Source: an uncultured Nitrososphaerota archaeon
GTDB lineage: Archaea; Thermoproteota; Nitrososphaeria; Nitrososphaerales; Gagatemarchaeaceae
Direction of reading: 5' to 3'
Assembly (NCBI GenBank): GCA_963718895.1
Contig: CAVRAG010000008.1
Coordinates: 1,440,001 to 1,504,000 of the forward strand
Length of the DNA stretch: 64,000 bases
The notes under the pieces were generated by a model, which saw nothing but the letters and a program-made list of their open reading frames with translations, did no database searches and had not been told where the DNA came from. Both the position numbers and the translations under genes were made by a program. This document shows positions 1,759 to 64,000 of the stretch, piece by piece. Each line of letters begins with the position of its first letter. Position 1 is the stretch's first letter.

Positions 1759-1780
1759 GGTTCGTTGCGCCTCCGCCGGG
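1759..1780 (+). repeat. Cassette repeat copy (core only)
   Basis: GGTTCGTTGCGCCTCCGCCGGG. Confidence 0.85.
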
Positions 1781-1798
1781 TTTGCTACCTCGGGCGGT

Positions 1799-2680
1799 CT
1801 ACCCTTCGCCGAGCGCCTCGATCTGCTTCCTCATCGAGGCAGTCGTGGCCGAGAGCTGGTCCAAGGCGAGTCTGGCCGCACCCGCCCGCAACCCGGGAGA
1901 GACCTTGGCGACCGCGTCGACCAGTTCGAGGGTTGCGATGAGCTCGCCCACCCACTCAGGTCCAGGGTCCGGTCCGTGTCCCCACCACGATACTATCCAC
2001 CACCACGGGTTGTAGATGCTCGGGACGGTCGGTGGCTTGACTGTGACGTGAGACTCCTGGTAGATGGCGACGGCCATGCCGAGGGTCCCCTGTGGGACGT
2101 TCAGCGCCGTGTCGCCCGTCAACATGAAGGCTCCGTTCAGGACCCATTTTGAGAACGGTTCGGGGGTCGAGACGACCGACGTGCTGGCGACCAGAGTCTC
2201 GGCCGCTGTCGTAGGTACGACTCCGACCACGTTTGCGTTACCGGTCAGGCTGGGGTCACTGGTCACGGTGACGAAGGTGTCGTCGATGAACCGTCCCAGG
2301 TTCGCCGAGAAGGCGTCGTCGATGATTTCAGGTCCGCCTCCGCCGGTACCCGGTCCGCTCGTGGGGAAGTACCAGGCCGTGATCGTCAAGGGTGAAGTAC
2401 CCACGGTCTGGGTGAACGCCACCGGCGGCAGCACCTGTCCGTTCGTGCCGTCGGTCACGCTCCAGAACATGAGGTTAGCCATGCCACTGCCGCTCATGAT
2501 GGTGTACGGTAGTTGAGGGAAGAAGGGCGGAGTGGTGACGCCGCCTGCCGGCACATCGCCTCCGGCCATCGGCGCCAGAGCCAGATCGATGGAGGTGTTC
2601 CGCGGCTGTCGGTGATGACCTCCGGGGAGAAACATCTTGTAGTATACGGCTACGTTCGTCAAATTTCGAGCCGACATCAT
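1799..2680 (-). CDS. Hypothetical beta-rich protein
   Basis: Long ORF; start moved to ATG 2680, downstream of TATA box at ~2694-2701. Confidence 0.75.
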   Translation of the reverse strand: MMSARNLTNVAVYYKMFLPGGHHRQPRNTSIDLALAPMAGGDVPAGGVTTPPFFPQLPYTIMSGSGMANLMFWSVTDGTNGQVLPPVAFTQTVGTSPLTITAWYFPTSGPGTGGGGPEIIDDAFSANLGRFIDDTFVTVTSDPSLTGNANVVGVVPTTAAETLVASTSVVSTPEPFSKWVLNGAFMLTGDTALNVPQGTLGMAVAIYQESHVTVKPPTVPSIYNPWWWIVSWWGHGPDPGPEWVGELIATLELVDAVAKVSPGLRAGAARLALDQLSATTASMRKQIEALGEG

Positions 2681-2764
2681 GTTATCACCATTGTTATATA
2701 AGCCTAACGAGGTTGTTAATGCAAAATCTGAAAACGTGCGCTCTTTGCCATCGATCCCAGGCAC

Positions 2765-2806
2765 TTGTTGGGCCTCAGCCGGTCCACCCAATCCACGAGT
2801 TGGGCT
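2765..2806 (+). repeat. Cassette repeat copy (degenerate, right arm kept)
   Basis: TTGTTGGGCCTCAGCCGGTCCACCCAATCCACGAGTTGGGCT. Confidence 0.65.
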
Positions 2807-2861
2807 GTGGCTGGAGCTCCCGGAGCGGCCTGTCTTGGTGCAGTAGCAAATCTCTTTTTAC

Positions 2862-3098
2862 TTAGCGCACCTCGACCGGTAGAACGGACATCATCCGCGA
2901 GTACAGGAACCAGCTGACCACGACCAGCATGAAGCTGAAGACGAAGACCGCGATGTCGGTCCCGAGGGCCTCCGGGGTCTGCGGCAGGTTCCCGATGAGC
3001 ACCAGCGAACCAATGGAGAGCGCGAGACCGAAGACGATGTCAGAGAGGCCTTCTATCCTAACCTTGATCCGCGGGATGCCGACCGGCTCCTCGGGCAA
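2862..3098 (-). pseudogene. Truncated TMEM175/DUF1211-like K+ channel fragment
   Basis: RIEGLSDIVFGLALSI resembles the TMEM175 RxxxFSD helix; only 2 TM helices, 78 aa. Confidence 0.55.
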
Positions 3099-3191
3099 GC
3101 GCGAGAAAGCAGCGGGGTGATTTTTTATCCTAGGAGAGGGCAGATACCCAAGGGGAATTGTTAAAATCTCTGCGCTGAACTCTCAACACTG

Positions 3192-3725
3192 TTGCTTTCC
3201 CTAGGCGCTTCGGCTCCCAAGTTCGAGCATCTTCTGTCGGCGGACGGGAGGAGGTACTCGCTTGATTCGTTCAGAGAGAAGCCGGTCCTTGTGGTGGTCT
3301 TCTCCTGCAACCACTGCCCTTACGTCAAGGACTATGAGGGAAGGATGGTCGAGATTCAGGCCGAGTACGCCTCCAGGGGAGTCCAGGTGGTCGCGATAAA
3401 TTCGAACGACGACAAGGCCTACCCCCAGGACAGCTACCCCGAGATGGTCAAGCGGGCGAGAGAGAAAGGGTTCAACTTCGTCTATCTTCGAGACGCCGAC
3501 CAGAGCACCGTGGATGCCTACGGGGCGGTCTGCACGCCGCACGTCTTCCTTTTCGACGCGAAGAGGATCCTTCGCTACAGGGGTCGGATAGACGACTCGA
3601 GGGACGCGTCGAGGGTCAAGAGCCCCGACCTGAGAAACGCCATCGAGGAAGTGATTCGGGGAGTCCCCGTGGCGAACCCTGACACGAGGCCTTTCGGCTG
3701 CAGTATCAAGTTCTTCCAGGGTTAG
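3192..3725 (+). CDS. Thioredoxin-fold AhpC/TSA (redoxin) family protein
   Basis: CNHCPYV, YRGRIDD and GCSIK motifs. Confidence 0.92.
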   Translation: MLSLGASAPKFEHLLSADGRRYSLDSFREKPVLVVVFSCNHCPYVKDYEGRMVEIQAEYASRGVQVVAINSNDDKAYPQDSYPEMVKRAREKGFNFVYLRDADQSTVDAYGAVCTPHVFLFDAKRILRYRGRIDDSRDASRVKSPDLRNAIEEVIRGVPVANPDTRPFGCSIKFFQG

Positions 3726-3758
3726 CTCCAGTCTCGTTAGAGAAGCGGCGGAACACTA

Positions 3759-4889
3759 ATGAATCGGCGCGTGTCATCGCGCTTGGGAAGAGCTTTGGTA
3801 GCTCGACGAATTCTCTTTTCGCGGGAGCTGACTAGCACAGATGTTCACGAGAACCTGAGGGACGCCATCCTGGCCGAGAATCAGGGATATGACTGTCTTT
3901 GGATTCCCGACCACCTGACTGACATACCTCCGCCGACCGTGGTGCTGGACGCCTGGACTGCTCTCAGCTACGTCGGGTCGCACACCAAGAGGATCAGGGT
4001 GGCCTCGGGCGTCACGGATACCCAGAGGATACACCCGGCCAAGACGGCGAACATCGTCGCGACGCTGGACCACATCACGAACGGGCGCGCGGTCCTCGGG
4101 ATCGGCGCCGGCGAGGTGATGAACACCAAGCCCTACGGAATCCAATGGGAATCGAGCGAGGTGCGGATAAAGCGAGTGGAAGAGGCGATAAGGATGATAA
4201 GGCTCCTCTGGTCCTCGTCGTACAGCAAGCCCGTGAGCTTCGATGGGGACTACTATCGACTTGACAAGGCCCATCTCGACCTGCCGCCAGTCCAGAAGCC
4301 CTCCCCTCCCATCTATGTGGGAGCCTACTCATCCTCAAAGATGCTCGCGATTGCCGGAGAGCTCGCAGACGGCTGGTATCCCGCATTCTACTATACCGTC
4401 GGCAGCTATCGAGAGAAACTGAAGGTCATCAGAGACGCAGCGGCGAGGGCGGGCAGGAGCTTCGACTCCATAGACAGAATGGCATACGTGCCAATCGTGA
4501 TTGGTGAGAAGTCTCCATCCTTGATGAGGGACCTCAAAAAGTACCTGAAGAGGCAGATGATCATGAACAGGTACCTGTTCAAGATACTCGGGGTGGAGGA
4601 CGCGCTCGACTCCGTCCCCAAGGAGCTGAACTATCAGCTCATCGCCCCGACCCTGGGCTATTCCAAGATGATAGACAGGGTTGTGAGCAAACTCCAAATC
4701 CCGGACGAGGCTCTCGAGAAAGGATTGGACGAGATGTTGGCCATCGGGACACCCGACCAGTGCATACAGTCGCTCGAAAGGTTCGTGAAGGCGGGCGCGA
4801 CACACATCTGCGTGAACCTCCCGCTCGGTGGGAGGGAAGACTACCGCTCGATCGCGAGCGAGATAATCCCCCGGTTCAGAGAGCCCTGA
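3759..4889 (+). CDS. LLM-class (luciferase-like, probably F420-dependent) oxidoreductase
   Basis: WIPDH, GRAVLGIGAGE and AGELADGW motifs; start uncertain. Confidence 0.9.
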   Translation: MNRRVSSRLGRALVARRILFSRELTSTDVHENLRDAILAENQGYDCLWIPDHLTDIPPPTVVLDAWTALSYVGSHTKRIRVASGVTDTQRIHPAKTANIVATLDHITNGRAVLGIGAGEVMNTKPYGIQWESSEVRIKRVEEAIRMIRLLWSSSYSKPVSFDGDYYRLDKAHLDLPPVQKPSPPIYVGAYSSSKMLAIAGELADGWYPAFYYTVGSYREKLKVIRDAAARAGRSFDSIDRMAYVPIVIGEKSPSLMRDLKKYLKRQMIMNRYLFKILGVEDALDSVPKELNYQLIAPTLGYSKMIDRVVSKLQIPDEALEKGLDEMLAIGTPDQCIQSLERFVKAGATHICVNLPLGGREDYRSIASEIIPRFREP

Positions 4890-5363: not shown

Positions 5364-6530
5364 TCAGGACTTCCCGAGCCTCCTGAAGAGGAGAACGCCC
5401 ACCGAAAGAATCACCAGGCTGCTTGCAGAAACCACCGCGAGGTCGGTAAGCACGGATTGGCTGGTCGCCGCTGCGCCCCTGGTGAAGAGGGATGTGAGAG
5501 CGTCTGTGACGTAGTAGGCGGGGACGAACCGGCCCGCAGCCTGTGCCGTCGACGAGAGTGCCGTACCCACGAACGTGCCGAGGAAGAGCTGCGGCATCAG
5601 GAAGACGAACGATATGCCCGTGGCCGCGCCCGCCGTCTTCGATATGGCGGCAGTGATCAGTCCGAAACCGATGTTGCACATGGCGAATATCGTCACGATG
5701 AGGAACCCCACGACCAGGCCGGAGAGGTCCGCGACGGGGTGGTAACCCAACGCATAGACGCAGAGGAACACCAGCAGGGCTTGCACCAGGCCGATGACGA
5801 GGTACGACAGCACGGAGCCTGCAATCAGGTCTGCGCTGGTAGCCGGGGTCACGGCTATCCTGCTCAGGAGGCCGCTCTCCCTCTCTCCGGTGTACGACTG
5901 GGCCACCATCATGATCATGTAGATCGAGGCGAAGGCGAAGAGCCCCGGCGCGAACGTAGCGAACATCGACGACGCCTGGACCTTTACCATCGATGGGCTC
6001 GATACGTCGACCGGCACCGCGGGGGCAGGAGAAGACATGCCGAGAACCCCGTCCTTTAGAGCCTGGTCCACGATTGAGGGGATGACCTGGGCCGAGAGCA
6101 GGGAGCCTCTGTCCAGGTAGAGGGGAACGGTGCAGTTGACCCATCTGCTGGGCGAACCAGGGGAGGCCCTGAACGAGCTGACGCTAGCGTCGAACTGAGA
6201 AGGGAGCGAGAGGACCCCCTGTACCTTCCCCTGGCTCAGGGCCGACTGCGCAGTCTGATTGTCCGAGTAGTACTGGACCCTGATCACGCCGGTCGCCTCG
6301 AGGGCCTGGGCGAACTGATGCGAAGGTGTCGAGTTGCCGCCGACCCCGAGGTCGACGACCGCGAGGTTGTATGTCGTCGATTGCGAGCCACCGCCGACGG
6401 CTCCGAACGAGGTTCCGAACGCTATCGTCAGAATCACCGGGAAGAGGATGATCATGAACAGGAACGCGGGTTCCCTGAACATCCTCTTCCATTCCTTGTT
6501 GGAGAGCGCCAGGGCGCGGCGGAGCCTCAT
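5364..6530 (-). CDS. ABC-2 type transporter permease
   Basis: Start MRLRRA at 6530; N-terminal TM, soluble loop, 5 C-terminal TMs; ERESG motif. Confidence 0.92.
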   Translation of the reverse strand: MRLRRALALSNKEWKRMFREPAFLFMIILFPVILTIAFGTSFGAVGGGSQSTTYNLAVVDLGVGGNSTPSHQFAQALEATGVIRVQYYSDNQTAQSALSQGKVQGVLSLPSQFDASVSSFRASPGSPSRWVNCTVPLYLDRGSLLSAQVIPSIVDQALKDGVLGMSSPAPAVPVDVSSPSMVKVQASSMFATFAPGLFAFASIYMIMMVAQSYTGERESGLLSRIAVTPATSADLIAGSVLSYLVIGLVQALLVFLCVYALGYHPVADLSGLVVGFLIVTIFAMCNIGFGLITAAISKTAGAATGISFVFLMPQLFLGTFVGTALSSTAQAAGRFVPAYYVTDALTSLFTRGAAATSQSVLTDLAVVSASSLVILSVGVLLFRRLGKS

Positions 6531-6532
6531 CT

Positions 6533-7297
6533 CTATGACCCCTCCCTGATTCTTCTCCCTGTTAGCTGGATGAAGACGTCCTCGAGGTCTCTTGCCCCGT
6601 TTCTCGACCTGAGCTCGGCCGGGGATCCCAGAGCGATCAGCTTCCCATGGTCGATTATCCCGACCCTGTCGCACAGCTCCTCGGCCTCCTCCATGTAGTG
6701 CGTCGAGAGAAGGACCGTCCTGCCCTGGTCTCTCAGCTCCGCTATGAAGTCCCAAATCGCCCGGCGAGACTGCGGGTCCATCCCGACGGTGGGCTCGTCC
6801 AGCAGGATGATCTTGGGGTCGTGGACGAGTGCCATGGCGATGCTCACCCTGCGCTTCATCCCGCCGCTATACTTGCTCGTCCTCCTGCCGCCCTCGTCCA
6901 GCAGGCCAACCTTCTCCATCATCCTGTCGACCCGGGCGTCCAGCGTCTCCTTCGGGACGGAGCAGAGCTCCCCGAAGAGCTTCACGTTCTCCCTCCCGGT
7001 CAGGTACGGATAGACAGCCGTCTCCTGCGGGGAGACTCCCATGATTCCCCTAGCCTTGACACCGTCGGTCCCGACGTCGAACTGACCCACCCTGACCGAC
7101 CCCGCGGTCGGCTTCAGGAGGCCCGTGAGGCACTTCATGGTCGTGGTCTTCCCTGAGCCATTCGGCCCGAGCAGCCCGAAGACCTCGGCTTCGTGGATTG
7201 AGATTGAAAGGTCGTCGACGGCCGTGACGTCTGCGAACATCTTCGTCAGGTTCTCTATCACCACGGCATCTCTTACCACAGCGGTCTCCCTTTGCAT
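6533..7297 (-). CDS. ABC transporter ATP-binding protein
   Basis: GPNGSGKTT, YSGGMKRR, LLDEPT. Confidence 0.96.
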   Translation of the reverse strand: MQRETAVVRDAVVIENLTKMFADVTAVDDLSISIHEAEVFGLLGPNGSGKTTTMKCLTGLLKPTAGSVRVGQFDVGTDGVKARGIMGVSPQETAVYPYLTGRENVKLFGELCSVPKETLDARVDRMMEKVGLLDEGGRRTSKYSGGMKRRVSIAMALVHDPKIILLDEPTVGMDPQSRRAIWDFIAELRDQGRTVLLSTHYMEEAEELCDRVGIIDHGKLIALGSPAELRSRNGARDLEDVFIQLTGRRIREGS

Positions 7298-7428
7298 GGC
7301 ACCGCCGTCTGTCTCTCGGTTGTTATTTTCACGTCAATGGGACGGGAGAAGAACCGGACAGAACCCTTCGCTCAGAAGGGCGATCCTTCAACCGCGTGGT
7401 TGATATCTCGGAACACGGGTGAAGAGGG

Positions 7429-8343
7429 TCAGCCGACGGCCGGGGTCGCTCTTTCGTCCTCGAGACTGAGCTTGTCCACCCACGTGTCGAATATGTAGCC
7501 GATCTGCAGGACGTTCACCATGACAGACTCGACGCCCCTGGCCTTGCCCATTTCTTCCCTCAGGTCATCCATCTGCCTCATCGAGTTAGTCCACAGAAAC
7601 AGGGTTAGCTCGTTGGGGAGGTTGCTGAACATGACTTCGATCAGCACGTTCTGCGAGAAGCTCTGCCTGAAGGTTGACAGGACCTCCGCCCTGCTGGCGC
7701 CCCGTGCGATCTTGACGTGGCCGACGGCGATGATGTCGTTCGAGGCGTCGGGGTACCATTCCAGCGAGAAGTCCACCAGATGGTTCTCGACCATCCTCTC
7801 CAGGCGTCTGTGGACGGTCTTCGTCGAGGCCCGGACCTCGGCCGCGACGTCGCTTAGCGGCTTGCGCGAATCCTTGTGGAGAGACGCCAGAATCCGGTAG
7901 TCGAGCTGATACAGCCTCGGGCTTGGGAGCGGACCGGTCGACTGCGACATTACCCCCACCGTGGGCTCGTCTATCTCGCCCTCCTTCCTGACGAAGGAGA
8001 CGTACGAGTCCAGTTGGGAAAGGTCCCTGAGGTATCCCCCCACGTAGAGGTAGCCGCCTCCCGAGTTGGCCACCCAGTAGGTCGAGTCGTTGTCCCTGAG
8101 CCTGAGGTGAGCCTTGCTGGGAAGGTCTGCCCCGGACCTCCCGAAGACCCATACGGTGGTCGCCTTGAGAGAGCTCAGACTCACCCGCGCAGTGAAGGTG
8201 CGTATTATGCCAATCTCGATCAGCGCCTTGATCCTTTTGTGAACTGCGTTGATGGACAGCCCCAGCCGGCCAGCGAGCTCGTGGTATGGAGCCCTGGAGT
8301 CGGACAACAGGAACAGGCACAGCTTGATGTCGGTGCTGTCCAT
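7429..8343 (-). CDS. Tandem Lrp/AsnC-family transcriptional regulator
   Basis: Two AsnC HTH repeats (DSRAPYHELA, DSRKPLSDVA). Confidence 0.88.
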   Translation of the reverse strand: MDSTDIKLCLFLLSDSRAPYHELAGRLGLSINAVHKRIKALIEIGIIRTFTARVSLSSLKATTVWVFGRSGADLPSKAHLRLRDNDSTYWVANSGGGYLYVGGYLRDLSQLDSYVSFVRKEGEIDEPTVGVMSQSTGPLPSPRLYQLDYRILASLHKDSRKPLSDVAAEVRASTKTVHRRLERMVENHLVDFSLEWYPDASNDIIAVGHVKIARGASRAEVLSTFRQSFSQNVLIEVMFSNLPNELTLFLWTNSMRQMDDLREEMGKARGVESVMVNVLQIGYIFDTWVDKLSLEDERATPAVG

Positions 8344-8470
8344 CTTGCTTCGAGAAGCGGCGCGAATGCACCTTGGGTAAAGGTCTTTCGAGCACCACGA
8401 CGAGGTTCTCCTCCCCGCCTGGGCTTGGCCGCAGGGAAATCTTACTTAGGGCGAAGTCCATGGCCGTGTG

Positions 8471-9010: not shown

Positions 9011-9036
9011 GGATTTCGTCGCGCCTCCACCAGGGC
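9011..9036 (+). repeat. Cassette repeat copy (degenerate)
   Basis: GGATTTCGTCGCGCCTCCACCAGGGC. Confidence 0.55.
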
Positions 9037-9224
9037 GTATCAGAGTCGGGCGCAGGCAACCCTGGATCGCTCTTGAGTCTCGAAGGTCAAATCCCGCTCA
9101 GAAGAGGAACCTCAGATCTTCTTTGTCATAAGAGATCGAGCCCGGCCGACGGCATCTCTGCGAAGGCTCTCTCAGGTACGCTTAGGTACCGGGAGCTCTA
9201 TGACGGCCCGAGTTGGCGCCCGCC

Positions 9225-9572: not shown

Positions 9573-9617
9573 CGTATCTCCTTCTGCGACTTCGAAGAGG
9601 TACCGGGCAAGGCGTAA

Positions 9618-9642
9618 GGATCCATTGCGCCTCTGCCAGTCC
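9618..9642 (+). repeat. Cassette repeat copy (degenerate)
   Basis: GGATCCATTGCGCCTCTGCCAGTCC. Confidence 0.65.
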
Positions 9643-12636: not shown

Positions 12637-12708
12637 TAGTACGCCTCCTCAGCTGTGGGGAGCTGGGCAAAAAAGTTACTTGGTCTACAACTCTGAAGGG
12701 GTTGTTTT

Positions 12709-12744
12709 GCCATGCGTGAGGGTTCATTGCGCCTCGCCGGGAAT
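12709..12744 (+). repeat. Cassette repeat copy (left arm + core)
   Basis: GCCATGCGTGAGGGTTCATTGCGCCTCGCCGGGAAT. Confidence 0.9.
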
Positions 12745-51750: not shown

Positions 51751-51800
51751 GCCATAGAAATTGCGGGTCCCCGCCGAGGCATTTCATCCAGACGTTTGGC
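51751..51800 (+). repeat. Cassette repeat copy (degenerate left, right arm kept)
   Basis: GCCATAGAAATTGCGGGTCCCCGCCGAGGCATTTCATCCAGACGTTTGGC. Confidence 0.8.
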
Positions 51801-52538: not shown

Positions 52539-52573
52539 CTGGTTCCCACTTTGATTCCCACTTTCGCTACTTA

Positions 52574-52620
52574 AGGGTTCGTCGCGCCCCCGCCGGGGCA
52601 GTTCATCCACACGTTGGGCT
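52574..52620 (+). repeat. Cassette repeat copy (core + right arm)
   Basis: AGGGTTCGTCGCGCCCCCGCCGGGGCAGTTCATCCACACGTTGGGCT. Confidence 0.92.
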
Positions 52621-52653
52621 ATAGTAAGTCGACGCTAAGAGAGGGCTGTGAGA

Positions 52654-52881
52654 CTAGCCGAGCAGTCTTAGGAATTCGTCTCTCGTCATCCCGGATTGCT
52701 CGATGATGGAGAGCAGCGTTCCTGTTGCGACGGTCTCGTGCCGCGGGACCGTGACCTTGTGCTTCCTCTCCGGCTCGGTCATGTAGATGTGGCTGCCTTT
52801 TTGATGAATCACATAGAAGCCCTTCTTTCCGAGGGCCTTGACAATCCGCCTCCAGCCTAGGCTCGGCAGGCGCTTCGACAA
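52654..52881 (-). CDS. hicA: HicA toxin
   Basis: QKGSH, VTVPRH, GTLLSII. Confidence 0.94.
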   Translation of the reverse strand: MSKRLPSLGWRRIVKALGKKGFYVIHQKGSHIYMTEPERKHKVTVPRHETVATGTLLSIIEQSGMTRDEFLRLLG

Positions 52882-53144: not shown

Positions 53145-53200
53145 TGTAAGTATGGAACCTGACGTTCCTTATTAGCGAATCTATCCTTGATCCCGGAATG

Positions 53201-53246
53201 AGGTTCGTTGCGCCTCCGCCGGGGCATTTCATCCACATGTTGGGCT
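53201..53246 (+). repeat. Cassette repeat copy (core + right arm)
   Basis: AGGTTCGTTGCGCCTCCGCCGGGGCATTTCATCCACATGTTGGGCT. Confidence 0.96.
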
Positions 53247-53323
53247 ATGGGTAAGGCGCCTGCTGAACTAGTCGCCGAGCAGCCCTGACAATCAAGAAAC
53301 CGATGAAGAAGACCGACCTCGGG

Positions 53324-53793: not shown

Positions 53794-53849
53794 GCCGAAA
53801 TGATGTATTTCTTTCGATGATAAAAGCAGCTCTGAAGGACCAGGACGTT

Positions 53850-53881
53850 GCCATGTATAGGGTTCATTGCGCCTCCGCTGG
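53850..53881 (+). repeat. Cassette repeat copy (left arm + core)
   Basis: GCCATGTATAGGGTTCATTGCGCCTCCGCTGG. Confidence 0.95.
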
Positions 53882-55116: not shown

Positions 55117-55256
55117 CTATGGTGTGTCGACAGACCTTGGGGGATCTGCCGGAGTCATATCTCGCGCCGAGCTCAGGCATTATTTACGAGTTTACTTGCT
55201 TCAGTTCCAGAGCCTCTAGGACCTGTCTGATTTGAGATGCCGTAGAGAAAGGCAGT

Positions 55257-55305
55257 GCCATGTATAGGGTTCGTTGCGCCTCCGCCGGGGTACTTTCATT
55301 CGCAC
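55257..55305 (+). repeat. Cassette repeat copy
   Basis: GCCATGTATAGGGTTCGTTGCGCCTCCGCCGGGGTACTTTCATTCGCAC. Confidence 0.93.
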
Positions 55306-55314
55306 GATAGGATT

Positions 55315-55921: not shown

Positions 55922-55975
55922 GTTGTAAACTTGATTGTAAACAACCATATAAACACCACTGTCTCTTGGAGGGCA

Positions 55976-56008
55976 AGGGTTCATTGTATCTCCGCCGGGG
56001 CATTTCAC
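55976..56008 (+). repeat. Cassette repeat copy
   Basis: AGGGTTCATTGTATCTCCGCCGGGGCATTTCAC. Confidence 0.88.
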
Positions 56009-56023
56009 CAAAATGACTTCGGA

Positions 56024-57150: not shown

Positions 57151-57183
57151 GTCCTGCAGGGTTCATTGCGCCTCCGCCGGGGA
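57151..57183 (+). repeat. Cassette repeat copy
   Basis: GTCCTGCAGGGTTCATTGCGCCTCCGCCGGGGA. Confidence 0.92.
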
Positions 57184-57201
57184 TGTCAAGTCCTGATCAG
57201 G

Positions 57202-57786: not shown

Positions 57787-57832
57787 ATAGATATGCAATA
57801 TAGACTATAATATATATGCACCACGCTTTCTC

Positions 57833-57888
57833 GCCATGTGTAGGGTTCATTGCGCCTCCGCCGGGGCATTTCATCTGCGCGTTCGGCT
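57833..57888 (+). repeat. Cassette repeat copy (full length)
   Basis: GCCATGTGTAGGGTTCATTGCGCCTCCGCCGGGGCATTTCATCTGCGCGTTCGGCT. Confidence 0.96.
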
Positions 57889-57937
57889 CAGGCGCTGGTG
57901 AGGGAATCCGGCCCACAATTCGGCCATCATTCGCCGC

Positions 57938-58354
57938 TTACTCTTTGTCGAGCAGTTCCTTCCATCCGATGACATCATGCCCAGTGATTGAGCCCGCGAG
58001 CTTTCTATCCTCAGTGGCGAGTGGAAGGTCTAGAGACTCTGCGGCAACGACATAGCAGGCATCGTAGTACGCAATCCCCTTCTTCACGGCCAAGTCCATT
58101 GCTTTGTCATGGTCCAGATCCTCTCCTCGTACTATGGAGGTCCGAGATAGGAGTGCGACGAGAGCATTGTGAGTCGCGTGCGCGTCCTTCTCAGTGATCA
58201 GCTTCAGGAGTCGGGTCTGCTTCCAGATCCCGTTTCCTGCCTCATAGGTCGCCAGGTCCAGCGTCGTAAGGTCTGTGGCCAGGTCTGCCAGCTTTGTAGC
58301 ATTGGCGTGTTTCACGAGGAGAAGAAGCGCGCTTGCGTCCACAAGAGCCTTCAT
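57938..58354 (-). CDS. vapC: VapC PIN-domain toxin
   Basis: LVDASA, YEAGN, YYDACY, LATEDR. Confidence 0.93.
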   Translation of the reverse strand: MKALVDASALLLLVKHANATKLADLATDLTTLDLATYEAGNGIWKQTRLLKLITEKDAHATHNALVALLSRTSIVRGEDLDHDKAMDLAVKKGIAYYDACYVVAAESLDLPLATEDRKLAGSITGHDVIGWKELLDKE

Positions 58355-58821: not shown

Positions 58822-59679
58822 GTGATCATGACCCTGGCAAAAGTCAAAGCGGTTTCCGACCTGGTCAAGATCGAGCTTCCTGCCGCGGCGGGGATTTGCG
58901 TCGTAGCAGGTGAGGTGATGGCCCTGGGTCGCCTTCCCTCGGCCACCACCGTCATCCTGGGCTTTCTGCTTGGCTTCTTCGTCTCTGCTGCGGCCATGAT
59001 CTCGAACGACTATTTCGACCGCGAAGTGGACCGGGTCAACCATCCCGAGAGGCCGTTGCCCTCGGGTCGCATCACGACCGGCGAGCTGCTGATCATCGAG
59101 GCCTGTTTCTCTCTGGCGGGTCTTGCAATCGCGGCCTTCCTGGGCGTGGTTGTTTTGGTCGGAGCCTCAGCTCTCTGGATCATCGGATTCCTGTACAACT
59201 GGAGATACAAAGAGTCCGGCCTAGTCGGGAACATGATGGTCAGTGCTTCTGTAGCTTCCACCTTCGTGGTCGGTGGCATAGCCTCGGCCGGGCCCGTAAA
59301 CGGCCTCGTGTGGACGTTCGGCACTCTGGCATTCATGTTCGATCTTGCAGAGGAGATAGCAGGGGGCGCAATGGATGTTGTCGGCGACGCGAAACGAAAC
59401 GTGAGGTCCCTGGGGAGGGTGCTCGGAAAGATCTGCGCGCTTCGGGTCTCTGTGATCCTTTACACTCTCGTGATAGTAGGGACCTTCGTCCCGGTCGTGA
59501 GGGGATGGTTGGGGGCCCCTTATCTCGCGATCGCAGCGGTCACCGACCTCCTGTTGATCTACTTCTCGGCCCGGCTCTACAGAAGCAGGACTCCCGAGGA
59601 GGGAAGACGTGAGATTCGCCACTTGTACCTGACGGCTGCAGGACTTGTAGCCGCCTTCTTACTCGGTAGCGCCTTCTAG
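58822..59679 (+). CDS. UbiA-family prenyltransferase (DGGGP synthase-like)
   Basis: NDYFDREVDRVNHPERPLPSG; second motif DVVGD. Confidence 0.9.
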   Translation: MIMTLAKVKAVSDLVKIELPAAAGICVVAGEVMALGRLPSATTVILGFLLGFFVSAAAMISNDYFDREVDRVNHPERPLPSGRITTGELLIIEACFSLAGLAIAAFLGVVVLVGASALWIIGFLYNWRYKESGLVGNMMVSASVASTFVVGGIASAGPVNGLVWTFGTLAFMFDLAEEIAGGAMDVVGDAKRNVRSLGRVLGKICALRVSVILYTLVIVGTFVPVVRGWLGAPYLAIAAVTDLLLIYFSARLYRSRTPEEGRREIRHLYLTAAGLVAAFLLGSAF

Positions 59680-59698
59680 GCCGGACGAAGATGCTGGA

Positions 59699-59728
59699 GC
59701 CATGCTAGGGTTCATTGCACCTCTGCCC
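59699..59728 (+). repeat. Cassette repeat copy
   Basis: GCCATGCTAGGGTTCATTGCACCTCTGCCC. Confidence 0.88.
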
Positions 59729-59761: not shown

Positions 59762-61045
59762 TCATGCCAGTGGCATGTTAGGCGACCGGGACGAAGATGT
59801 GTGACGCCGGACCAGAAGATAGGATGCCGCCAAGAGAACGGTGAAGAAGGCGGCCACCAGGAACTGGTAGGGGAACACCGGCACTCCCCCTCCCCCGCCT
59901 GTCGAGCTTGTTGCGGAGGTCTGTGCCGTCGTAGAACTCGAGCCCGTGATGCTGTTGGCCGTGGAGGGAGAAGACGAAACGACCGTGGTGGTCGACGTGG
60001 AGCTCAGTGTGGTGGATGTGGTCGAGCTACCCGAGGTCGTTGACGACAGGGCGGCGTCGGGTACCACGGAGATGGTGGAACCGCCACTGTCGGCCACGAA
60101 CACCTCGCCCTTTCCCGAGTCGTAGGCTACGTCGTAGGGTGAGGTCCCTACCGTGACGTTCGCGACGATCTTGTCACTGCTGTCGGACACCGCTGAAATC
60201 GTGTTTGACATGTAGTTCCCTGCGACTACATCGCCCTTGGCAGAGTCGTAGACTACTTCTCCGACGCTGCCTCCTGCAGGTAAGATCACGGTCGCGACGA
60301 CCGCGTTGCTTGCGTCGGATATCACCGAGAACCCGTCGCCAAAATTGTCCGCGAACACTTCATCCTTTGCGGGGTCGTAGACCAGGCCCGTGGGGGAACC
60401 ATAGAGGACCACGTTGGCGACAACTTTGTTCGTGGAGTCGGAGACCACGGAGACATTGTCAGCTCCGTTATCCGCAACGAACACCTCGCCCTTGGCGGAA
60501 TCATAAGCCAGGCCCTCGGGGGAGCTTCCGGAGGGAAGGGTTACAGTCGCGACGACCGTGTTTGTGCCGTCGGAGATGACGGAGAGGGTGTCATCGAGAC
60601 CATTCGCCACGAACACTTCGCCCTTTGCAGAGTCATATGCCAAGCCGTCGGGAGTACCTCCAACATTCACGTTCGCCACGACCTTGTTCGTGGAGTCTGA
60701 TATCACGGAAACGGCGGCGTTGCCGCTGTCGGCGACGAAGATCTCGCCCTTTCCTGAGTCGTAGACGGCGCCCAGGGGAGAGCTTCCAGCGGGTAGGCTG
60801 AAGTTCGCGACGACGATGTCGGTGGTGTCGGATATCACAGAGCCCCTTGGGCCCAGATCCGCAACGAATATCTCGCCCTTGCCTGAGTCGTAGGCCAAGC
60901 TCTGGGGGGTACCCGTTACGGTTATGGTCGTCACAGCGGCCCCGGCCCTGGCGAAAGGAACGGCGACGGCCGAACCTAGGACCAAGAGGACCAGGAGAAT
61001 CATAGCAGACGTCATGCGGATGAACCCGTGACGCGAAGCCGACAC
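59762..61045 (-). CDS. YVTN/YncE beta-propeller surface protein with PEF-CTERM-like tail
   Basis: Seven YDSxKGEVFVA repeats; VPVFP-TM-RRH. Confidence 0.92.
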   Translation of the reverse strand: MSASRHGFIRMTSAMILLVLLVLGSAVAVPFARAGAAVTTITVTGTPQSLAYDSGKGEIFVADLGPRGSVISDTTDIVVANFSLPAGSSPLGAVYDSGKGEIFVADSGNAAVSVISDSTNKVVANVNVGGTPDGLAYDSAKGEVFVANGLDDTLSVISDGTNTVVATVTLPSGSSPEGLAYDSAKGEVFVADNGADNVSVVSDSTNKVVANVVLYGSPTGLVYDPAKDEVFADNFGDGFSVISDASNAVVATVILPAGGSVGEVVYDSAKGDVVAGNYMSNTISAVSDSSDKIVANVTVGTSPYDVAYDSGKGEVFVADSGGSTISVVPDAALSSTTSGSSTTSTTLSSTSTTTVVSSSPSTANSITGSSSTTAQTSATSSTGGGGGVPVFPYQFLVAAFFTVLLAASYLLVRRHTSSSRSPNMPLA

Positions 61046-61120
61046 GCTCTCGACTACGTTGCCGGTAGGCGCTCGATTTAAGACTTCGGAACTGCAATTC
61101 CAGAAGAATAATCCTCTTCG

Positions 61121-61170
61121 CGCATGGGTTCGTTGCGCTTCCGACGGTCCTTTCATCCACATGTTGGCTA
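61121..61170 (+). repeat. Cassette repeat copy
   Basis: CGCATGGGTTCGTTGCGCTTCCGACGGTCCTTTCATCCACATGTTGGCTA. Confidence 0.9.
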
Positions 61171-61173
61171 CGG

Positions 61174-61617
61174 CTACGGCTTCAATTTGTCAAGGTCCAC
61201 CGCAGGAAGCCCTAACCGACGATATGCGCCCTCGCTGGAAAGCAAGGTGATCCCAAGCCTCTTGGAGGCCGCCGCGTGCAGCGAGTCGAAGAAGGTCAGG
61301 CCTGGTTCGTCCTGACGCAGCCTCTCTGCCACTATCACGTCGCCGATGTCCACGGGTAACGCGTCGTCGATGCCATATTCTGCCAGGAGTGCGGCCATCA
61401 ACGTGAACGTCTCTTCGATATCCTTGCTCTGCACGCCCCTGGAATACAGCACGGTCCTCACCTCGAGCACGGCCGAGGAGAGAGGGGTTATCCTCAGTCT
61501 TCCGTCCCTGTGCATCTCGAGCGCGGTGATGACACTGGAGTGCCTCGCGTCCGACTTTCTCAGCCCGAAGAGAAAATCAGACTCTACGATCACTTGCTGT
61601 CGGGATTCAGAAGCCAT
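61174..61617 (-). CDS. vapC: VapC PIN-domain toxin
   Basis: IVESDFL, AVLEV, TFFDSLHAA, LLSSE. Confidence 0.88.
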   Translation of the reverse strand: MASESRQQVIVESDFLFGLRKSDARHSSVITALEMHRDGRLRITPLSSAVLEVRTVLYSRGVQSKDIEETFTLMAALLAEYGIDDALPVDIGDVIVAERLRQDEPGLTFFDSLHAAASKRLGITLLSSEGAYRRLGLPAVDLDKLKP

Positions 61618-61835: not shown

Positions 61836-61869
61836 GATTTGGGATTATGACCCGTATATTTAATTATTT

Positions 61870-61925
61870 GCCCGTAAATGGTTCATTGCGTCTCCGCCTG
61901 GGAGAGTATCATCCACACGCTGGCC
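61870..61925 (+). repeat. Cassette repeat copy
   Basis: GCCCGTAAATGGTTCATTGCGTCTCCGCCTGGGAGAGTATCATCCACACGCTGGCC. Confidence 0.88.
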
Positions 61926-62288
61926 ATGGTCTTTGGCTTACTGGCGTCACGGAAAGAAGTTCGCCGCGGTCACGGCAAGCCCGCCAGGTCTTAGCCCTGG
62001 TGCCTTGGCCGCCCCACAATCCGCGACCGCTGATTTTGGACGACGCCGGTACCGTTGCACTTTGGGCAAGGCGCGCTCTGGCCTGTGCTTACTTTGATTG
62101 TGCCAGTTCCTTTACAGTTCGGACAGGGTCCCGTTCTTACTGACATCGCGCGTTTGTGGCGTTCGGTCTCTTCTTACGTGTTCTGCCGTCGGCACCCGGC
62201 GAGTTGACAGGGAGGCTGCTAGCGACAGTCGAGTTACCAAAACCGATTATTGACTCGGTGGAGTTTACATTCCATTGAAGGAACTTGG

Positions 62289-62344
62289 GTCATGCATGTG
62301 GGTTCTTTGCGCCTGCGCCGGGGCATTTCATCCATGTGTTGGGG
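62289..62344 (+). repeat. Cassette repeat copy (full length)
   Basis: GTCATGCATGTGGGTTCTTTGCGCCTGCGCCGGGGCATTTCATCCATGTGTTGGGG. Confidence 0.93.
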
Positions 62345-62565
62345 TAAGTTAGACCCGGGACTACCAAGCCACCCTCTTCTTCTGATATTGCGAGAATACC
62401 CTATCCCCGAATAGCTATCTCGAGGTAGGCTGTTCCGGTTTGCAGCCACGGAAGATTTTTGATGCCTGAACCATTTGTGCCGGCAACTCATAGGTTCGCT
62501 TTCAATCTGTTCATCACGCGGCTTGCGATTATCAATCAAGGTGCCCATTTGTAATTGTTCTTCCG

Positions 62566-62594
62566 ATGCGTGGGGTTCATTGTCACATTCCGGG
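62566..62594 (+). repeat. Cassette repeat copy (degenerate)
   Basis: ATGCGTGGGGTTCATTGTCACATTCCGGG. Confidence 0.55.
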
Positions 62595-62614
62595 AAAAGA
62601 ATCTAGGTGCGAGT

Positions 62615-63863
62615 TCACTGGCTGGCCGGTACGAGCTCGTAGACTCCCACCGTCGGTGTTATGTTCTTCAGCTTGCGAGTCCCGAGATAACGCATCGAGG
62701 ACTTCAGCTTGTTCGATATCTGCTCGTAGACTTGCTTCGAGACGCAGACACCACCAGGTCTCGCGTATGCCTGCAATCTCGAAGCGATGTTGACGGCGTC
62801 ACCGAAGATGTCTCCGTCCTTGTGAATCACATCGCCAACGTGAACCCCTATCCTGAGACTGTTGCCTCTTCTGATGCGCTGCATCCGGCTCTGGACTGCG
62901 ATGGCACACTCCGCGGCTGCGAGCACGCTCCCGAACTCGACCATGAATCCGTCGCCTGTCCCCTTAATCACGCTCCCTTCGTATCTGGGGATGATGGACA
63001 GGATGGCTCCCTCCTGTGTGTCAAGCAGTTTCATCGCTTCCCGCTCGTCCTTCCTCATCAACCCGCTGTAGCCGACCATGTCAGTCACCATCACGGCCGC
63101 CAGATGTCTCGTTCCTTGTGACCCTCTCCGCGCGCCTACCACCACCTCCCCCCGCGGCCGGAGGCTGAGCGTCCTCCACCCCGAATCGACCGGTCCTCCA
63201 TGGAACGCCCTCGCCCGGACATTGTGTTCCAGTCTGCCTGCCTTCTCCTTGGTCACCATGTCGAAGATGCCGTCGTACAGAGCCTCATTCTTCCTGTAGA
63301 ACGCTTCCGAGGCAACGCCCTTCACGAAACCATTGATGGTAATCAGCTCGCGCGCCCTCGCCCATGGTATGAAGATAGTCCGCCAGCCGTTGAACATCGT
63401 CTCCTCGTCGTTGAATTGGAGGAGAAGCGAGGTGTTGTCGTCTATGTGGAGCCACCGCATGTCCCGCTCTTCGAAACCTTCGGAGATTTGCTTCTTGATC
63501 ACTTTCCCCCACTCTCTCAGGTCGGGAGCTTTCATGGCAAGGAAGCCGACCTTCCCGGCTGGCGCCTTCATCGATCTCTTCGGTCGTTGGGGTATAACTG
63601 TCTATGAGCCTGAGCATGCCCCTCTTCGTCTCTTTATCGACGGAAACCCCCAATTCTTCGAGGGCCTCCTTGACATCGACTATGTTCCGGTGGAAGGAGT
63701 GGTACTCGGTCTTCAGACCACGCTGCACGGCACGAGCGGCAACGGTTACCGAAGCCTCATACCAAGGGGAGTCTGGCTCGAACTCTACCAGATAGTTCCC
63801 TCCCACGCGTAGTCCGTCCGGCACCATGGCCTCAAAGAACGGGACCACGACCCTGACGGGCAT
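62615..63863 (-). pseudogene. KaiC/RecA-like (degenerate ATPase) domain fused to class III cyclase; frameshift near 63580
   Basis: The 63863 ORF (VPDGL..NYLVEF..RLIDSY) continues in the 63571 frame (IDD, YDGIFDM, then LAAVMVTDMVGY, GDAVNIASR). Confidence 0.75.
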
Positions 63864-63970
63864 TACTTGGAATTCACCGACTGGAACTATAAGCGTTTAC
63901 CCCTTTGTCTGGACGGCTCTTGCTTCGCATATATGAAAACTGGGGGCTTGTGATTCAGAAGGGACCCTGA

Positions 63971-64000
63971 GCCATGCTAGGGTTCATTGCGCCTCCGCCG
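63971..64000 (+). repeat. Cassette repeat copy (truncated by window edge)
   Basis: GCCATGCTAGGGTTCATTGCGCCTCCGCCG. Confidence 0.95.

Follow-up and report, generated by a model that had tools for sequence, protein, structure and literature searches.

How does a 64-kb stretch of archaeal DNA (the window, i.e. the whole stretch that was analysed) come to be divided by dozens of short, co-oriented repeats, and what moves the genes between them? The first-pass annotation had described about 50 co-oriented 55-bp sites at gene boundaries, and read them as a gene capture and shuffling array of archaeal origin. The source genome (G000) was confirmed to be archaeal. A repeat profile was built from 9 good copies and used in nhmmer searches of the genome and the window. 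At a cut-off of E<=1 the window contains 45 copies, of which 33 pass E<=0.01 and 18 pass E<=1e-5; every one (45/45) is on the + strand and sits between genes, which bears out the described layout. A 22-mer taken from the first-pass consensus gave, with <=3 mismatches, 27 matches in the window, again only on the + strand, where 0 were expected (100 shuffles). The distances between starts of consecutive copies ranged from 303 to 6248 bp. The copies, with nhmmer bits and E-values from the window profile search (cut-off E<=1), are as follows (G007 and G021 are other genomes of the genus):

1747..1780, +, decayed site copy, far array end (20.9 bits, E 5.5e-4)
2767..2810, +, site copy, core and 23S-like arm (17.8 bits, E 5e-3)
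9015..9042, +, weak site copy, could be chance (12.2 bits, E 0.29)
9610..9640, +, weak site copy, could be chance (12.3 bits, E 0.27)
12706..12741, +, site copy, trailer arm and core (21.5 bits, E 3.6e-4)
16245..16288, +, site copy (23.1 bits, E 1.1e-4)
18367..18396, +, weak site copy (13.6 bits, E 0.11)
21054..21080, +, site copy (19.4 bits, E 1.7e-3)
21760..21801, +, decayed site copy (16.7 bits, E 0.012)
22939..22968, +, weak site copy (13.6 bits, E 0.11)
23586..23610, +, weak site copy, could be chance (10.6 bits, E 0.91)
26866..26896, +, weak site copy (13.9 bits, E 0.086)
29174..29200, +, weak site copy (12.9 bits, E 0.17)
29648..29693, +, site copy (27.9 bits, E 3.6e-6)
31112..31138, +, weak site copy, could be chance (10.6 bits, E 0.89)
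32214..32243, +, site copy (17.9 bits, E 4.8e-3)
34687..34728, +, site copy, core and 23S-like arm (20.3 bits)
35997..36034, +, site copy, left boundary of a unit with a second copy at array position 80924 (19.6 bits)
37379..37431, +, site copy, right boundary of a unit found also in G007 (20.0 bits)
38901..38939, +, site copy (26.1 bits)
39611..39673, +, full site: trailer arm, core, 23S arm (64.3 bits, E 1.5e-17)
40273..40304, +, weak site copy (14.2 bits)
40778..40816, +, site copy, core and 23S arm, without trailer arm (25.7 bits)
41311..41338, +, site copy, trailer arm and left part of core (21.8 bits)
41614..41654, +, site copy, core and 23S arm (34.5 bits)
44858..44887, +, site copy (23.0 bits)
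45817..45879, +, full site (59.9 bits)
46205..46267, +, full site (68.6 bits)
48098..48160, +, full site; 23S-like arm foreign, resembling the G021 arm type (57.4 bits)
49611..49672, +, full site (55.8 bits)
50390..50426, +, site, left boundary of a unit with a second copy at array position 83075 (31.5 bits)
51036..51063, +, site, right end of the same unit (16.3 bits)
51767..51800, +, site, left boundary of a unit with a second copy at array position 89120 (23.8 bits)
52563..52625, +, full site, right end of the same unit (57.3 bits)
53188..53250, +, full site (64.2 bits)
53849..53881, +, site, trailer arm and core, gene stop codon 3 nt off (28.8 bits)
55255..55311, +, site (42.6 bits)
55973..56011, +, site (31.9 bits)
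57153..57184, +, site, left boundary of a unit found also in G007, 93.9% identical (25.4 bits)
57831..57892, +, full site, right end of the same unit (59.9 bits)
59696..59727, +, decayed site (15.9 bits)
61119..61170, +, site (34.5 bits)
61873..61923, +, site (29.5 bits)
62286..62349, +, full site (56.7 bits)
63968..64000, +, site truncated where the window ends, left boundary of a unit found also in G007, 89.9% identical (28.7 bits)

The whole array spans ~126 kb and holds 84 copies (84/84 on the + strand of G000) with a median unit spacing of 847 bp, and the window is its half far from the 23S rRNA gene. Genome-wide, the profile matches fall into few clusters and 84 of the 109 belong to the array; clustering at one locus had been named beforehand as support for the array reading. 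According to our own rough gene calls for the whole array, a single gene occupies 38 of the 83 intervals and two genes occupy 16, the cargo genes are 65% uniform in strand (69 minus vs 37 plus), and of the 106 genes 49 have their end, but 17 their start, no more than 60 nt from a site.

The repeat corresponds, in reverse complement, to the 3' end of 23S rRNA and its 3' trailer, i.e. to the trailer strand of the processing stem, and this identity is new here. The array originates a few bases past the 3' end of the single 23S rRNA gene of G000, and the Rfam archaeal LSU model ends at L007:4000, within the last repeat (L007:3962-4022). This anchoring lay beyond the view of the first-pass annotation, as the gene is located on the minus strand, 64 kb past the right edge of the window. 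The sole part common to all copies is a 24-bp core, GGGTTCATTGCGCCTCCGCCGGGG on the + strand, which in the RNA sense reads CCCCGGCGG-AG-GCGC-AAU-GAACCC. The partner of this trailer strand lies in the 16S-23S spacer, as does the only minus-strand match of the profile in G000 (a single leader copy per genome). The 23S leader and trailer cofold through the core sequence and are alike in three genomes.

Of the 55-bp site described earlier, the invariant core stood, while the flanking arms turned out to be optional and present in about half of the copies: one arm, derived from the 23S 3' end, measures 0 to ~65 nt, and the opposite one, derived from the trailer, 0 to ~130 nt (10 to 130 nt in arm-bearing copies). 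Among 176 cores, conservation is lost by +19 in the 88 without a 23S-like arm and begins at -7 in the 86 without a trailer arm, and these limits define a discrete, sharp-edged block of 24 bp. For the most part, the 23S-like arms agree with the 23S end of the host itself. Core sites of tyrosine recombinases usually have dyad symmetry, which, judged by eye, is absent from the 24-bp core.

Both inside G000 and across species, it is precisely at the repeat that units have been acquired, lost or rearranged, in agreement with what the first-pass annotation had looked for. In all eight homologous unit pairs compared (four between G000 and G007, and four inside G000), both limits of homology fall within the core, and the units on either side show no relationship; arm-less units have also moved between species with boundaries inside the 24-bp block. 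The public sequencing runs examined yielded short contigs of low depth that cross-mapped between repeats, and neither cassette circles nor indels at the population level were visible in them. Five units shared by G000 and G007 show 89.0-94.8% identity, compared with 77.7-80.6% for the 14.5 kb syntenic right flank. Neither the 38 kb closest to the 23S gene in G000 nor the 22.6 kb closest to it in G007 has a counterpart in the other array, and site scores become lower the further a site is from this gene (Spearman 0.34, p = 0.002 in G000; 0.30, p = 0.047 in G007). This decay gradient is modest. Small core arrays were also found inside integrative elements at tRNA genes: in tRNA-Ser elements that are orthologous in three species, the conserved flanks stop at the first and last core, and the elements hold 6, 3 and 4 cores with differing cassettes, some of them related to cassettes of the G000 array.

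An array behind the 23S gene is present in all seven genus genomes examined (G000, G007, G009, G010, G012, G018 and G021), in each with the first core 6-7 nt from the 23S model end and with co-oriented cores heading away from the gene. A 21-mer search (<=2 mismatches) gave matches in 19 of 22 other genus genomes, 1 of 2 sister-genus genomes and 0 of 16 genomes from other families of the order. Repeats of the own trailer were absent from the 40 kb downstream in three closed outgroup genomes (positive control, 13). In a metagenome scan, the exact 22-mer was present in at least 120 contigs; among the 80 of these, from soil or peat, that were analysed, cores are in a single orientation in 78, and a core adjoins a 23S 3' end in 20. 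In the seven long metagenome contigs checked, the core lies ~20 nt ahead of the first aligned 23S base.

The cargo comprises toxin-antitoxin (TA) genes and accessory enzymes. The TA genes of the window encode PIN-domain proteins (four above the Pfam cut-off and one below), ParE with DUF2683, HicA and a Fic match below the cut-off, so that the TA cargo named in the first-pass annotation was recovered; the GNATs named alongside were not found among the 40 window ORFs scanned with Pfam. The features are:

3759..4889, +, luciferase-like monooxygenase, old decayed part (PF00296)
5364..8396, -, ABC-2 transporter genes and AsnC-type regulator, old part (Pfam scan); the 3-kb block has an entire second copy at array position 84412
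11242..12636, -, PLP-dependent decarboxylase (PF00282)
12792..14492, +, DUF885 protein (PF05960)
16326..18260, -, cyclase-TPR protein (PF00211 and TPR families)
21873..22808, +, arginase-family enzyme (PF00491)
24130..25758, -, thermopsin-family protease (PF05317)
26907..29120, divergent TetR regulator and MFS transporter genes (PF00440, PF07690)
38416..38877, +, PIN-domain (VapC-like) toxin gene (PF01850, E 5e-10)
39695..40201, -, genes for ParE toxin and a DUF2683 protein, a TA pair that takes up one unit (PF05016, PF10884)
41761..43614, -, FAD-binding oxidoreductase (PF00890, E 3e-67)
44837..45820, +, short-chain dehydrogenase (PF00106, E 2e-58)
48024..48040, +, promoter-like motif TAATAGTTWTGTCCGAA adjoining a long-form site (motif reading)
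48245..49597, +, NHL-repeat protein (PF01436)
49690..50097, -, PIN-domain toxin gene (PF01850, E 1e-13)
50521..50913, +, Fic/Doc-like gene, weak match (PF02661, E 3e-4, below Pfam cut-off)
52654..52881, -, HicA toxin gene (PF07927, E 2e-18)
53884..55116, -, 410-aa protein without a Pfam family
57938..58354, -, PIN-domain gene (PF01850)
58822..59679, +, UbiA prenyltransferase (PF01040)
59762..61162, -, NHL/beta-propeller protein (PF01436)
61174..61617, -, PIN-domain gene, weak match (PF01850, E 4e-4, below Pfam cut-off)
62615..63571, -, adenylate/guanylate cyclase domain protein (PF00211)

By our own reading of its translation, the 410-aa protein carries a membrane anchor at its N terminus and numerous N-x-S/T sites; contig C10 and array position 97345 encode paralogues of it. 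The reverse strand of TAATAGTTWTGTCCGAA resembles a BRE/TATA box facing the minus-strand gene 47368-47931, for which it may serve as a promoter.

Considering these data together, the locus is probably a polar array anchored at the 23S gene (~126 kb, 84 sites), in which mobile cassettes are exchanged core to core and of which the window is the older far half. As the first-pass annotation had stated, no recombinase gene was found in the window; the flanking recombinase that it had hoped for was found on neither side of the array, nor did the array-bearing genomes yield a recombinase family common to all of them. Two tyrosine-integrase families are present, both in patchy tRNA-linked elements, and no serine recombinases or Y1 transposases were found in G000. 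Among four array-bearing genomes searched, Cas1 occurs in one and IS110 in three (two above the cut-off). Gene capture and shuffling at the repeat, as originally proposed, are supported, but since no recombinase was found, their site-specific nature is what we infer.

Several other explanations have to be weighed against core-to-core exchange of cassettes. Homologous recombination alone, in which the rRNA-end copies act as portable homology without a dedicated enzyme, the host excises, duplicates and re-inserts units, and DNA of relatives enters via the conserved 23S gene and the repeats, is an unlikely explanation, albeit one with several observations on its side. The array-bearing genomes share no recombinase family, half of the copies have long arms (~200 nt of homology in total), and the arms mostly correspond to the host's own 23S end, so that homologous recombination or gene conversion among copies also fits. 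However, the other half share the 24-bp block alone, sharp at both edges, arm-less units cross species with their boundaries inside it, and homology explains neither this universal minimal block nor its retention in integrative elements. Displaced fragments of a target RNA gene in direct orientation are a hallmark of integrative islands, and the site arms are such fragments; moreover, integrative elements of the genus carry cores near integrase genes. The array could then be a series of integrase-bearing elements inserted successively at the 23S end and reduced by deletions to small integrase-less remnants. This is improbable in view of 84 units with a median spacing below 1 kb and no integrase remnant in the array, of the same small core-bounded units recurring in another species at 89-95% identity, and of integrases that were found at tRNA genes, in elements whose ends are marked by tRNA-end repeats.

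A role in RNA is slightly less probable still. Core copies would be half processing sites pairing with the 23S leader, cassette transcripts would be cut or matured by the rRNA-processing machinery, and the mobility of the DNA would merely follow from this. In its favour, the core coincides exactly with the trailer strand of the processing stem, and gene ends outnumber gene starts near sites, but there is a single leader copy per genome, sites decay far from the 23S gene and the unit-precise transfer between species is left unexplained. The sharp core edges, the apparent growth from one fixed end and the host-derived arms would also suit polar insertion with repeat duplication (in the manner of Cas1 at CRISPR arrays or of casposases at their targets), in which the core would be cut in a staggered way at its two edges and copied by gap filling at each insertion by the 23S gene; given that Cas1 is confined to one of the four genomes, that arm lengths vary on both sides whereas a stagger would be fixed, and that units reach other contexts as core-bounded pieces, we hold this to be very improbable. 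In layout and cargo the array is like sedentary chromosomal integrons, and integrons with canonical attC sites are described from archaeal MAGs in PMC9668308. It is nevertheless not an integron, because it lacks both IntI (the best match to the integron-integrase model reached 33.8 bits vs a cut-off of 265) and an attC-type hairpin: the site folds into no hairpin on either strand (z-score +0.4 to +1.6 in 6/8 folds), its + strand has a GTTRRRY-like box without the partner RYYYAAC box, and it is a piece of the rRNA trailer. The non-canonical character claimed for the site was therefore correct, and a canonical integron, or an attC cluster that has lost its integron integrase, is extremely improbable.

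Under core-to-core exchange, conservative recombination between two cores would drive cassette movement, a cassette leaving or entering as a circle with one core, and the enzyme, for which a site-specific recombinase is our favoured guess, would act in trans. New cassettes would be inserted mostly at the core adjoining the 23S gene and, in consequence, older ones would be pushed outward and decay. Read-through from the rRNA operon may aid expression of minus-strand cassettes, and the abundant TA cassettes may stabilise the array. The system of this soil archaeon looks like integron-style gene capture built from different parts.

Searching the window with the 22-mer consensus of the repeat from the first-pass annotation (up to 3 mismatches) gave 27 matches, all on the + strand, against 0 expected from 100 shuffles. 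With a profile built from nine good copies (counting threshold E<=1), 109 copies were found in the 3.13-Mb assembly of the source genome G000 (completeness 80.5%; SSU model match of 1447 bits, i.e. archaeal), 89 of them on the + strand of contig C8. The window (C8:1440001-1504000) holds 45 of these copies, of which 33 reach E<=0.01 and 18 also E<=1e-5. The main cluster comprises 84 copies with a median spacing of 847 bp and spans C8:1441747-1568022, so that the window covers only its left half; as all 84 are on the + strand, the clustering at one locus and in one orientation that had been claimed from the sequence was borne out. The sole minus-strand profile match near this array is located in the 16S-23S spacer. 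Minor clusters were found at C8:1.19-1.22 Mb (5 copies) and at 264-301 kb of contig C4 (mixed orientation). No known RNA family (Rfam) matched the window (0 at E<=1), and viral contigs contained 0 exact matches to a 21-mer of the repeat. A tRNA gene as the target of the array was ruled out, as none was found in the window or in the array flanks.

The origin of the repeat was revealed by its last copy. The archaeal LSU model (Rfam) matches L007:4000-8001, the 23S gene on an extracted piece of C8 (minus strand, model positions 1-2987), and the last repeat of the array (L007:3962-4022) overlaps the end of this match at L007:4000. On its right side (GGCATTTCATCCACACGTTGGGCTATAG...), the repeat thus corresponds to the 23S 3' end in reverse complement, and the remainder is the 3' trailer of that gene. 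In the RNA sense, the conserved block reads CCCCGGCGG-AG-GCGC-AAU-GAACCC and is the trailer strand of the 23S processing stem. Complementary leader (16S-23S spacer) and trailer sequences flank the 23S gene and cofold at -131.8 kcal/mol, and both are alike in G000 and two other genomes of the genus (G007 and G018). A bulge-helix-bulge site consists of two 3-nt bulges with a 4-bp helix between them; in the processing stem, an AAU bulge (trailer strand), a GCGC/GCGC helix and, on the other side, a larger loop (AAGCAU opposite AG) were recognized by eye, and in this reading the bulges resemble a relaxed bulge-helix-bulge form. The minus strand of the repeat was also considered as a gene start (Shine-Dalgarno sequence and ATG, GGAGG-N5-ATG). 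This was rejected, as the ORFs are mostly of 10-46 aa and their frame varies between copies; the Shine-Dalgarno/ATG look is a by-product of the processing-stem sequence.

Two further features of the rRNA genes were recorded. The 5S rRNA gene (C8:1121475-1121594) is unlinked, 446 kb from the 16S-23S operon. The 23S genes of G000 (L007:4000-8001; C8:1568000-1572001) and of G009, G010, G012, G018 and G021, five other genomes of the genus, span 3.7-6.2 kb, which exceeds the 2987-position model, and they must therefore contain insertions of ~0.7-3.2 kb, possibly introns; those of closed outgroup genomes are about 2.96-3.0 kb long.

The anatomy of the site was resolved with 176 sites from seven chromosomal and four element-borne arrays, collected with the anchor 15-mer TTGCGCCTCCGCCGG (up to 2 mismatches). 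The 23S-like right arm is present in 88 sites and absent in the other 88, in which conservation stops by position +19. The trailer-like left arm is missing from 86 sites, and in these conservation starts at -7. These sharp edges define a block of 24 bp common to all copies, GGGTTCATTGCGCCTCCGCCGGGG, hereafter the core. The optional arms reach up to ~65 nt into the 23S end and up to ~130 nt into the trailer. The 23S-like arms are mostly of the host's own 23S-end type (TTGAGC in G018, G009 and G012; GGATAATCACCC in G021), with foreign-type arms in a few cassettes (two in G010 and one at window position 48098). Folding of both DNA strands of four full copies gave z-scores of +0.44 to +1.55 in 6 of 8 folds (best -1.25), and no attC-type hairpin was found on either strand. 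Copies with the 23S arm carry a GTTGGGC box, and because the + strand of the consensus is devoid of AAC there is no RYYYAAC partner box. Inverted arms were not recognizable in the core by eye; counting the 23S arm as well, 7 of 11 positions match. Polymorphisms did not place the crossover within the core (no resolution from 12 and 17 informative pairs), and an early impression of a crossover at the AAU bulge was dropped.

Extending the scan to relatives, as the first-pass annotation had proposed, revealed an array behind the 23S gene in all seven genus genomes examined, with lengths from 20 to >100 kb. The G007 array, ~44 copies on the + strand, occupies C1:1529676-1591798, with the syntenic 23S gene at its end. 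In G009, G010, G012, G018 and G021, the LSU model end is followed by the first core after 6-7 nt, and the co-oriented cores (about 9 to 46, over up to ~100 kb) lead away from the gene. The 21-mer was present in 19 of 22 other genus genomes (the three lacking it are only 57-76% complete), in one of two genomes from sister genera and in none of 16 from the order's other families. When three closed outgroup genomes were searched over 40 kb downstream for repeats of their own trailer, no second copy was found; the same test gave 13 copies in G018. In a metagenome scan, the 22-mer had exact matches in at least 120 contigs. Among the 80 analyzed, 78 had a single core orientation and 20 carried a 23S 3' end (77-93% identical to that of G000); in seven long contigs checked, the 23S end begins ~20 nt after a core.

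The DNA between two cores (the unit, or cassette) is what moves. Four G000 units are found again elsewhere in the array, 90-97% identical and with other neighbours, and five are common to G000 and G007 (89.0-94.8% identity); the order of these five is partly different, and the units around them are unrelated. When homologous units were aligned with 90-nt flanks, homology started and stopped within the core in 8/8 pairs; the comparison of unit order, within G000 and between species, thus placed the boundaries of exchanged units in the core, in agreement with the gene shuffling suggested at first reading. Over 14.5 kb of syntenic chromosome right of the rRNA operon, identity between the two genomes is only 77.7-80.6%. 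As the cassettes are more identical than this flanking chromosome, those shared are younger than the species split, and the excess of identity argues for cassette transfer between lineages. The 23S-proximal 38 kb of the G000 array and 22.6 kb of the G007 array are without counterpart in the other. The farther a site lies from the 23S gene, the lower its score tends to be (rho 0.34, p = 0.002 in G000; rho 0.30, p = 0.047 in G007), a modest trend that fits array growth at the 23S end. In public reads from seven soil or peat runs, 9-31% of words were present; in four public runs, contigs were of 150-700 nt at a depth of 2-8, the sides of joints were shorter than 30 nt and loose ends matched other repeats of the array, which made them uninformative on circles and indels.

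Some stretches of the arrays depart from this regular layout. A 3-kb block of ABC-2 transporter genes with an AsnC-type regulator occurs at window positions 5364-8396 and at C8:1524412-1527446 (81.7% identity between copies), and the site boundaries of the window copy are not obvious. An 18-kb stretch outside the window (C8:1540600-1558700; 100.6-118.7 kb of the array) is free of sites and contains three very large genes (1587, 828 and 782 aa); a similar gap is present in G007 (C1:1546-1561 kb).

The cargo was surveyed with Pfam in 40 window ORFs, of which eight had no family. Toxin-antitoxin (TA) genes, expected from the first-pass annotation, were indeed present (four PIN proteins above the Pfam cut-off and one below, ParE with DUF2683, HicA, and Fic below the cut-off), while the GNATs it had listed were absent from these 40 ORFs. 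Enzymes are represented by two SDRs, two luciferase-like monooxygenases, a PLP decarboxylase, an arginase, a thermopsin, a DLH hydrolase and UbiA, and other products are ABC-2 transporter parts, a TetR/MFS pair, DUF885, two cyclases and two NHL proteins. The two NHL-repeat genes (window 48441-49363 and 60053-60909) contain internal tandem repeats of 126-174 nt, which are protein repeats and do not involve the boundary site. According to our own rough gene calls, 69 genes are in the rRNA sense and 37 against it, and gene ends lie within 60 nt of a site in 49 of 106 cases and gene starts in 17 of 106. Clustering of 376 array ORFs (>=100 aa) taken from 87 pieces of array showed the cargo to be very diverse. 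The widest cluster comes from eight sources and, as we read the start of its sequence, may be a Ser/Thr-rich membrane-anchored protein; no large cluster looked, by appearance, like a recombinase. The motif TAATAGTTWTGTCCGAA, mostly following GAT, was found at 56 places genome-wide on both strands, chiefly in variable regions (e.g. window 48024-48040, C8:1189465, 1216128 and 1510049, and many on C4 and C10). Within the array, it precedes the starts of minus-strand genes by 40-90 nt and is found ~65 nt to the left of long-form sites. Its reverse strand reads to us like a BRE and TATA box, and mobile-element genes may share it as a promoter; some units apparently have a promoter of their own.

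Small core arrays are also borne by integrative elements. In three species, elements located at tRNA-Ser hold 6, 3 and 4 cores, and the conserved element flanks end at the first and last core. The cassettes are different, some being related to those of the G000 array, and the integrase-side core retains the 23S-like arm. The platform therefore also exists in a mobile form. In G000, the region C8:1131970-1223948 (extracted as L002 and L003) contains an intron-containing tRNA gene (L002:8303-8443; found with Rfam and missed by ARAGORN) with an integrated element on each side. Two 25-nt repeats mark elements of 60 and 31.5 kb: one repeats the 5' end of the tRNA gene and is found 60 kb to its left, the other repeats the 3' end and is found 31.5 kb to its right. 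The integrase is intact on one side and frameshifted on the other, and the right-hand element contains two group II intron reverse transcriptases. Several elements carry, between the core and the integrase or tRNA end, a member of a small ORF family (66-83 aa, motif ...ELKKLA.T.LP.SS.LRDLI.S.PD...), for which an excision or regulatory factor is our guess:

L021:2480-2731, small ORF, extracted piece L021
L027:7851-8051, small ORF, extracted piece L027
L032:2525-2755, small ORF, extracted piece L032
C8:1223514-1223729, small ORF, contig C8 of G000
L041 about 5686-5880, small ORF, extracted piece L041

A recombinase in the array flanks, where it had been expected, was not found: ordinary genes lie on both sides. 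No PF00589 match was detected in or beside the G000 array, and no serine recombinase or Y1 transposase in G000. In a six-frame search of the whole genome for IntI (TIGR02249), the best score was 33.8 bits against a cut-off of 265. Among four array-bearing genomes searched, Cas1 (PF01867) was found only in G009 and IS110 in three (two above the cut-off). No XerA-like gene common to the array-bearing genomes was found. PF00589 has a single match in each of G007 and G018; the two belong to different element-type families, and that of G007 lies directly after a tRNA-Leu gene. Two tyrosine-integrase families, Int461-type and Int412-type, are present, both adjoining tRNA genes. Cores lie 0.25-8 kb past the 3' end of 7 of 21 Int461-type genes and near three Int412-type genes; neither family has a match inside the array, and a single partial integrase match was obtained among the 80 metagenome loci. 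These integrases are not claimed as the enzymes acting on the core, given their location at tRNA genes (in 6 of 10 loci scanned), the tRNA-end repeats at the element ends and the patchy distribution of the families (19/22 and 10/22 genus genomes).

Integrons are the textbook means by which prokaryotes stockpile and shuffle single genes. Their integrase, IntI, is a tyrosine recombinase with a specific insertion, usually encoded beside the array, and their attC sites are imperfect inverted repeats (R''-L''...L'-R') that form a hairpin as single strands. The array described here behaves in an integron-like manner, with discrete units, one short site, one fixed end and TA-rich cargo turning over within and between species, but it fails both defining tests, IntI and attC: it has no IntI, and its site is a piece of the 23S trailer in place of a folded attC. 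The fixed end is the 23S gene rather than intI/attI, a third of the genes are on the other strand and some units apparently have their own promoters, again unlike in integrons. The long array of co-oriented short sites with one- or two-gene units is similar to sedentary chromosomal integrons and to attC clusters without integrase (Vibrio superintegron; archaeal integrons, PMC9668308). The archaeal integrons reported so far are made of bacterial parts, IntI and canonical attC (PMC9668308). Further features shared with chromosomal integrons are cargo rich in TA genes and accessory enzymes, sites more similar within a lineage, discrete pieces that are shuffled or exchanged and one fixed array end.

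Islands of the tDNA type each have their own integrase next to the att site. The array resembles tandem tRNA-gene islands because displaced fragments of a stable-RNA gene mark the unit ends; as in the entries of the Islander database, the target is the 3' end of such a gene, the displaced fragments are in direct orientation and re-use of the site leads to arrays. It differs in that the target is the 23S trailer and that tens of ~0.85-kb units are without integrases. Small integrase-less units with a short site are also typical of Xer/dif elements and of the pdif modules of Acinetobacter plasmids, which often carry TA or accessory genes, have a site of <30 bp and rely on an enzyme encoded elsewhere. 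A dif-like site, used by the conserved host Xer recombinase, has two inverted ~11-bp arms and a 6-bp spacer, whereas the core is without two inverted arms, all sites are in direct order and no common XerA-like gene was found. CRISPR arrays and casposon tandems are likewise polar, grow at one end beside a fixed leader-like sequence and have short repeats that degenerate at the distal end; in contrast to them, the inserts are whole genes (0.3-6 kb), and Cas1 was not found in three of the four genomes searched. Finally, HVR2 of SAR11, a hypervariable region next to the rRNA genes, is also a variable island anchored at conserved rRNA genes, but it is not known to contain an array in which short repeated sites delimit single units.

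The main text of a survey of thaumarchaeal mobile elements names tRNA genes, intergenic regions and the 3' ends of protein genes as targets, and 'rRNA' has 0 occurrences in it (PMC6563490). There are likewise 0 occurrences of 'rRNA' or '23S' in the text of a review of archaeal tyrosine recombinases (PMC8371274) and of 'rRNA' in that of the archaeal integron paper (PMC9668308). A full-text literature search of main texts found nothing on cassette arrays or integration at the 23S end.

Homologous recombination among the copies is a serious rival explanation for the movement of units, in favour of which are the host-like arms and the fact that no recombinase common to the array-bearing genomes was found. 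We nevertheless favour conservative recombination between cores, which would be catalyzed by a recombinase acting in trans, because the universal, sharp-edged 24-bp block looks like a protein site and because units without arms still move. One DNA strand of the core has nearly the same sequence as the RNA of the rRNA leader. We tentatively put forward, with rather less than even confidence, that this is an undescribed gene-capture platform of soil Nitrososphaerota-like archaea, integron-like in action and built from none of the integron's parts. Its docking site would be the processing-stem sequence just behind the 23S gene, the cassette sites would be 24-bp double-stranded copies of it and the catalyst either an unrecognised recombinase family or rRNA-leader-guided machinery, with copies riding on integrative elements and carrying cassettes between species.

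What is new here is cassette arrays that follow integron logic on a site derived from the host's own rRNA operon, without any known integron component. Genome binning is affected as well: rRNA genes often fail in the assembly of metagenome-assembled genomes, and the arrays adjoin these genes. If recombination at the core is confirmed, the well-defined 24-bp site would be a handle for finding a new archaeal recombinase, which could serve as a genetic tool for archaea that now have none. It would also mean that the cassette-array architecture arose more than once, and that mobile DNA has a safe harbour at the end of an rRNA gene as well as at tRNA genes.
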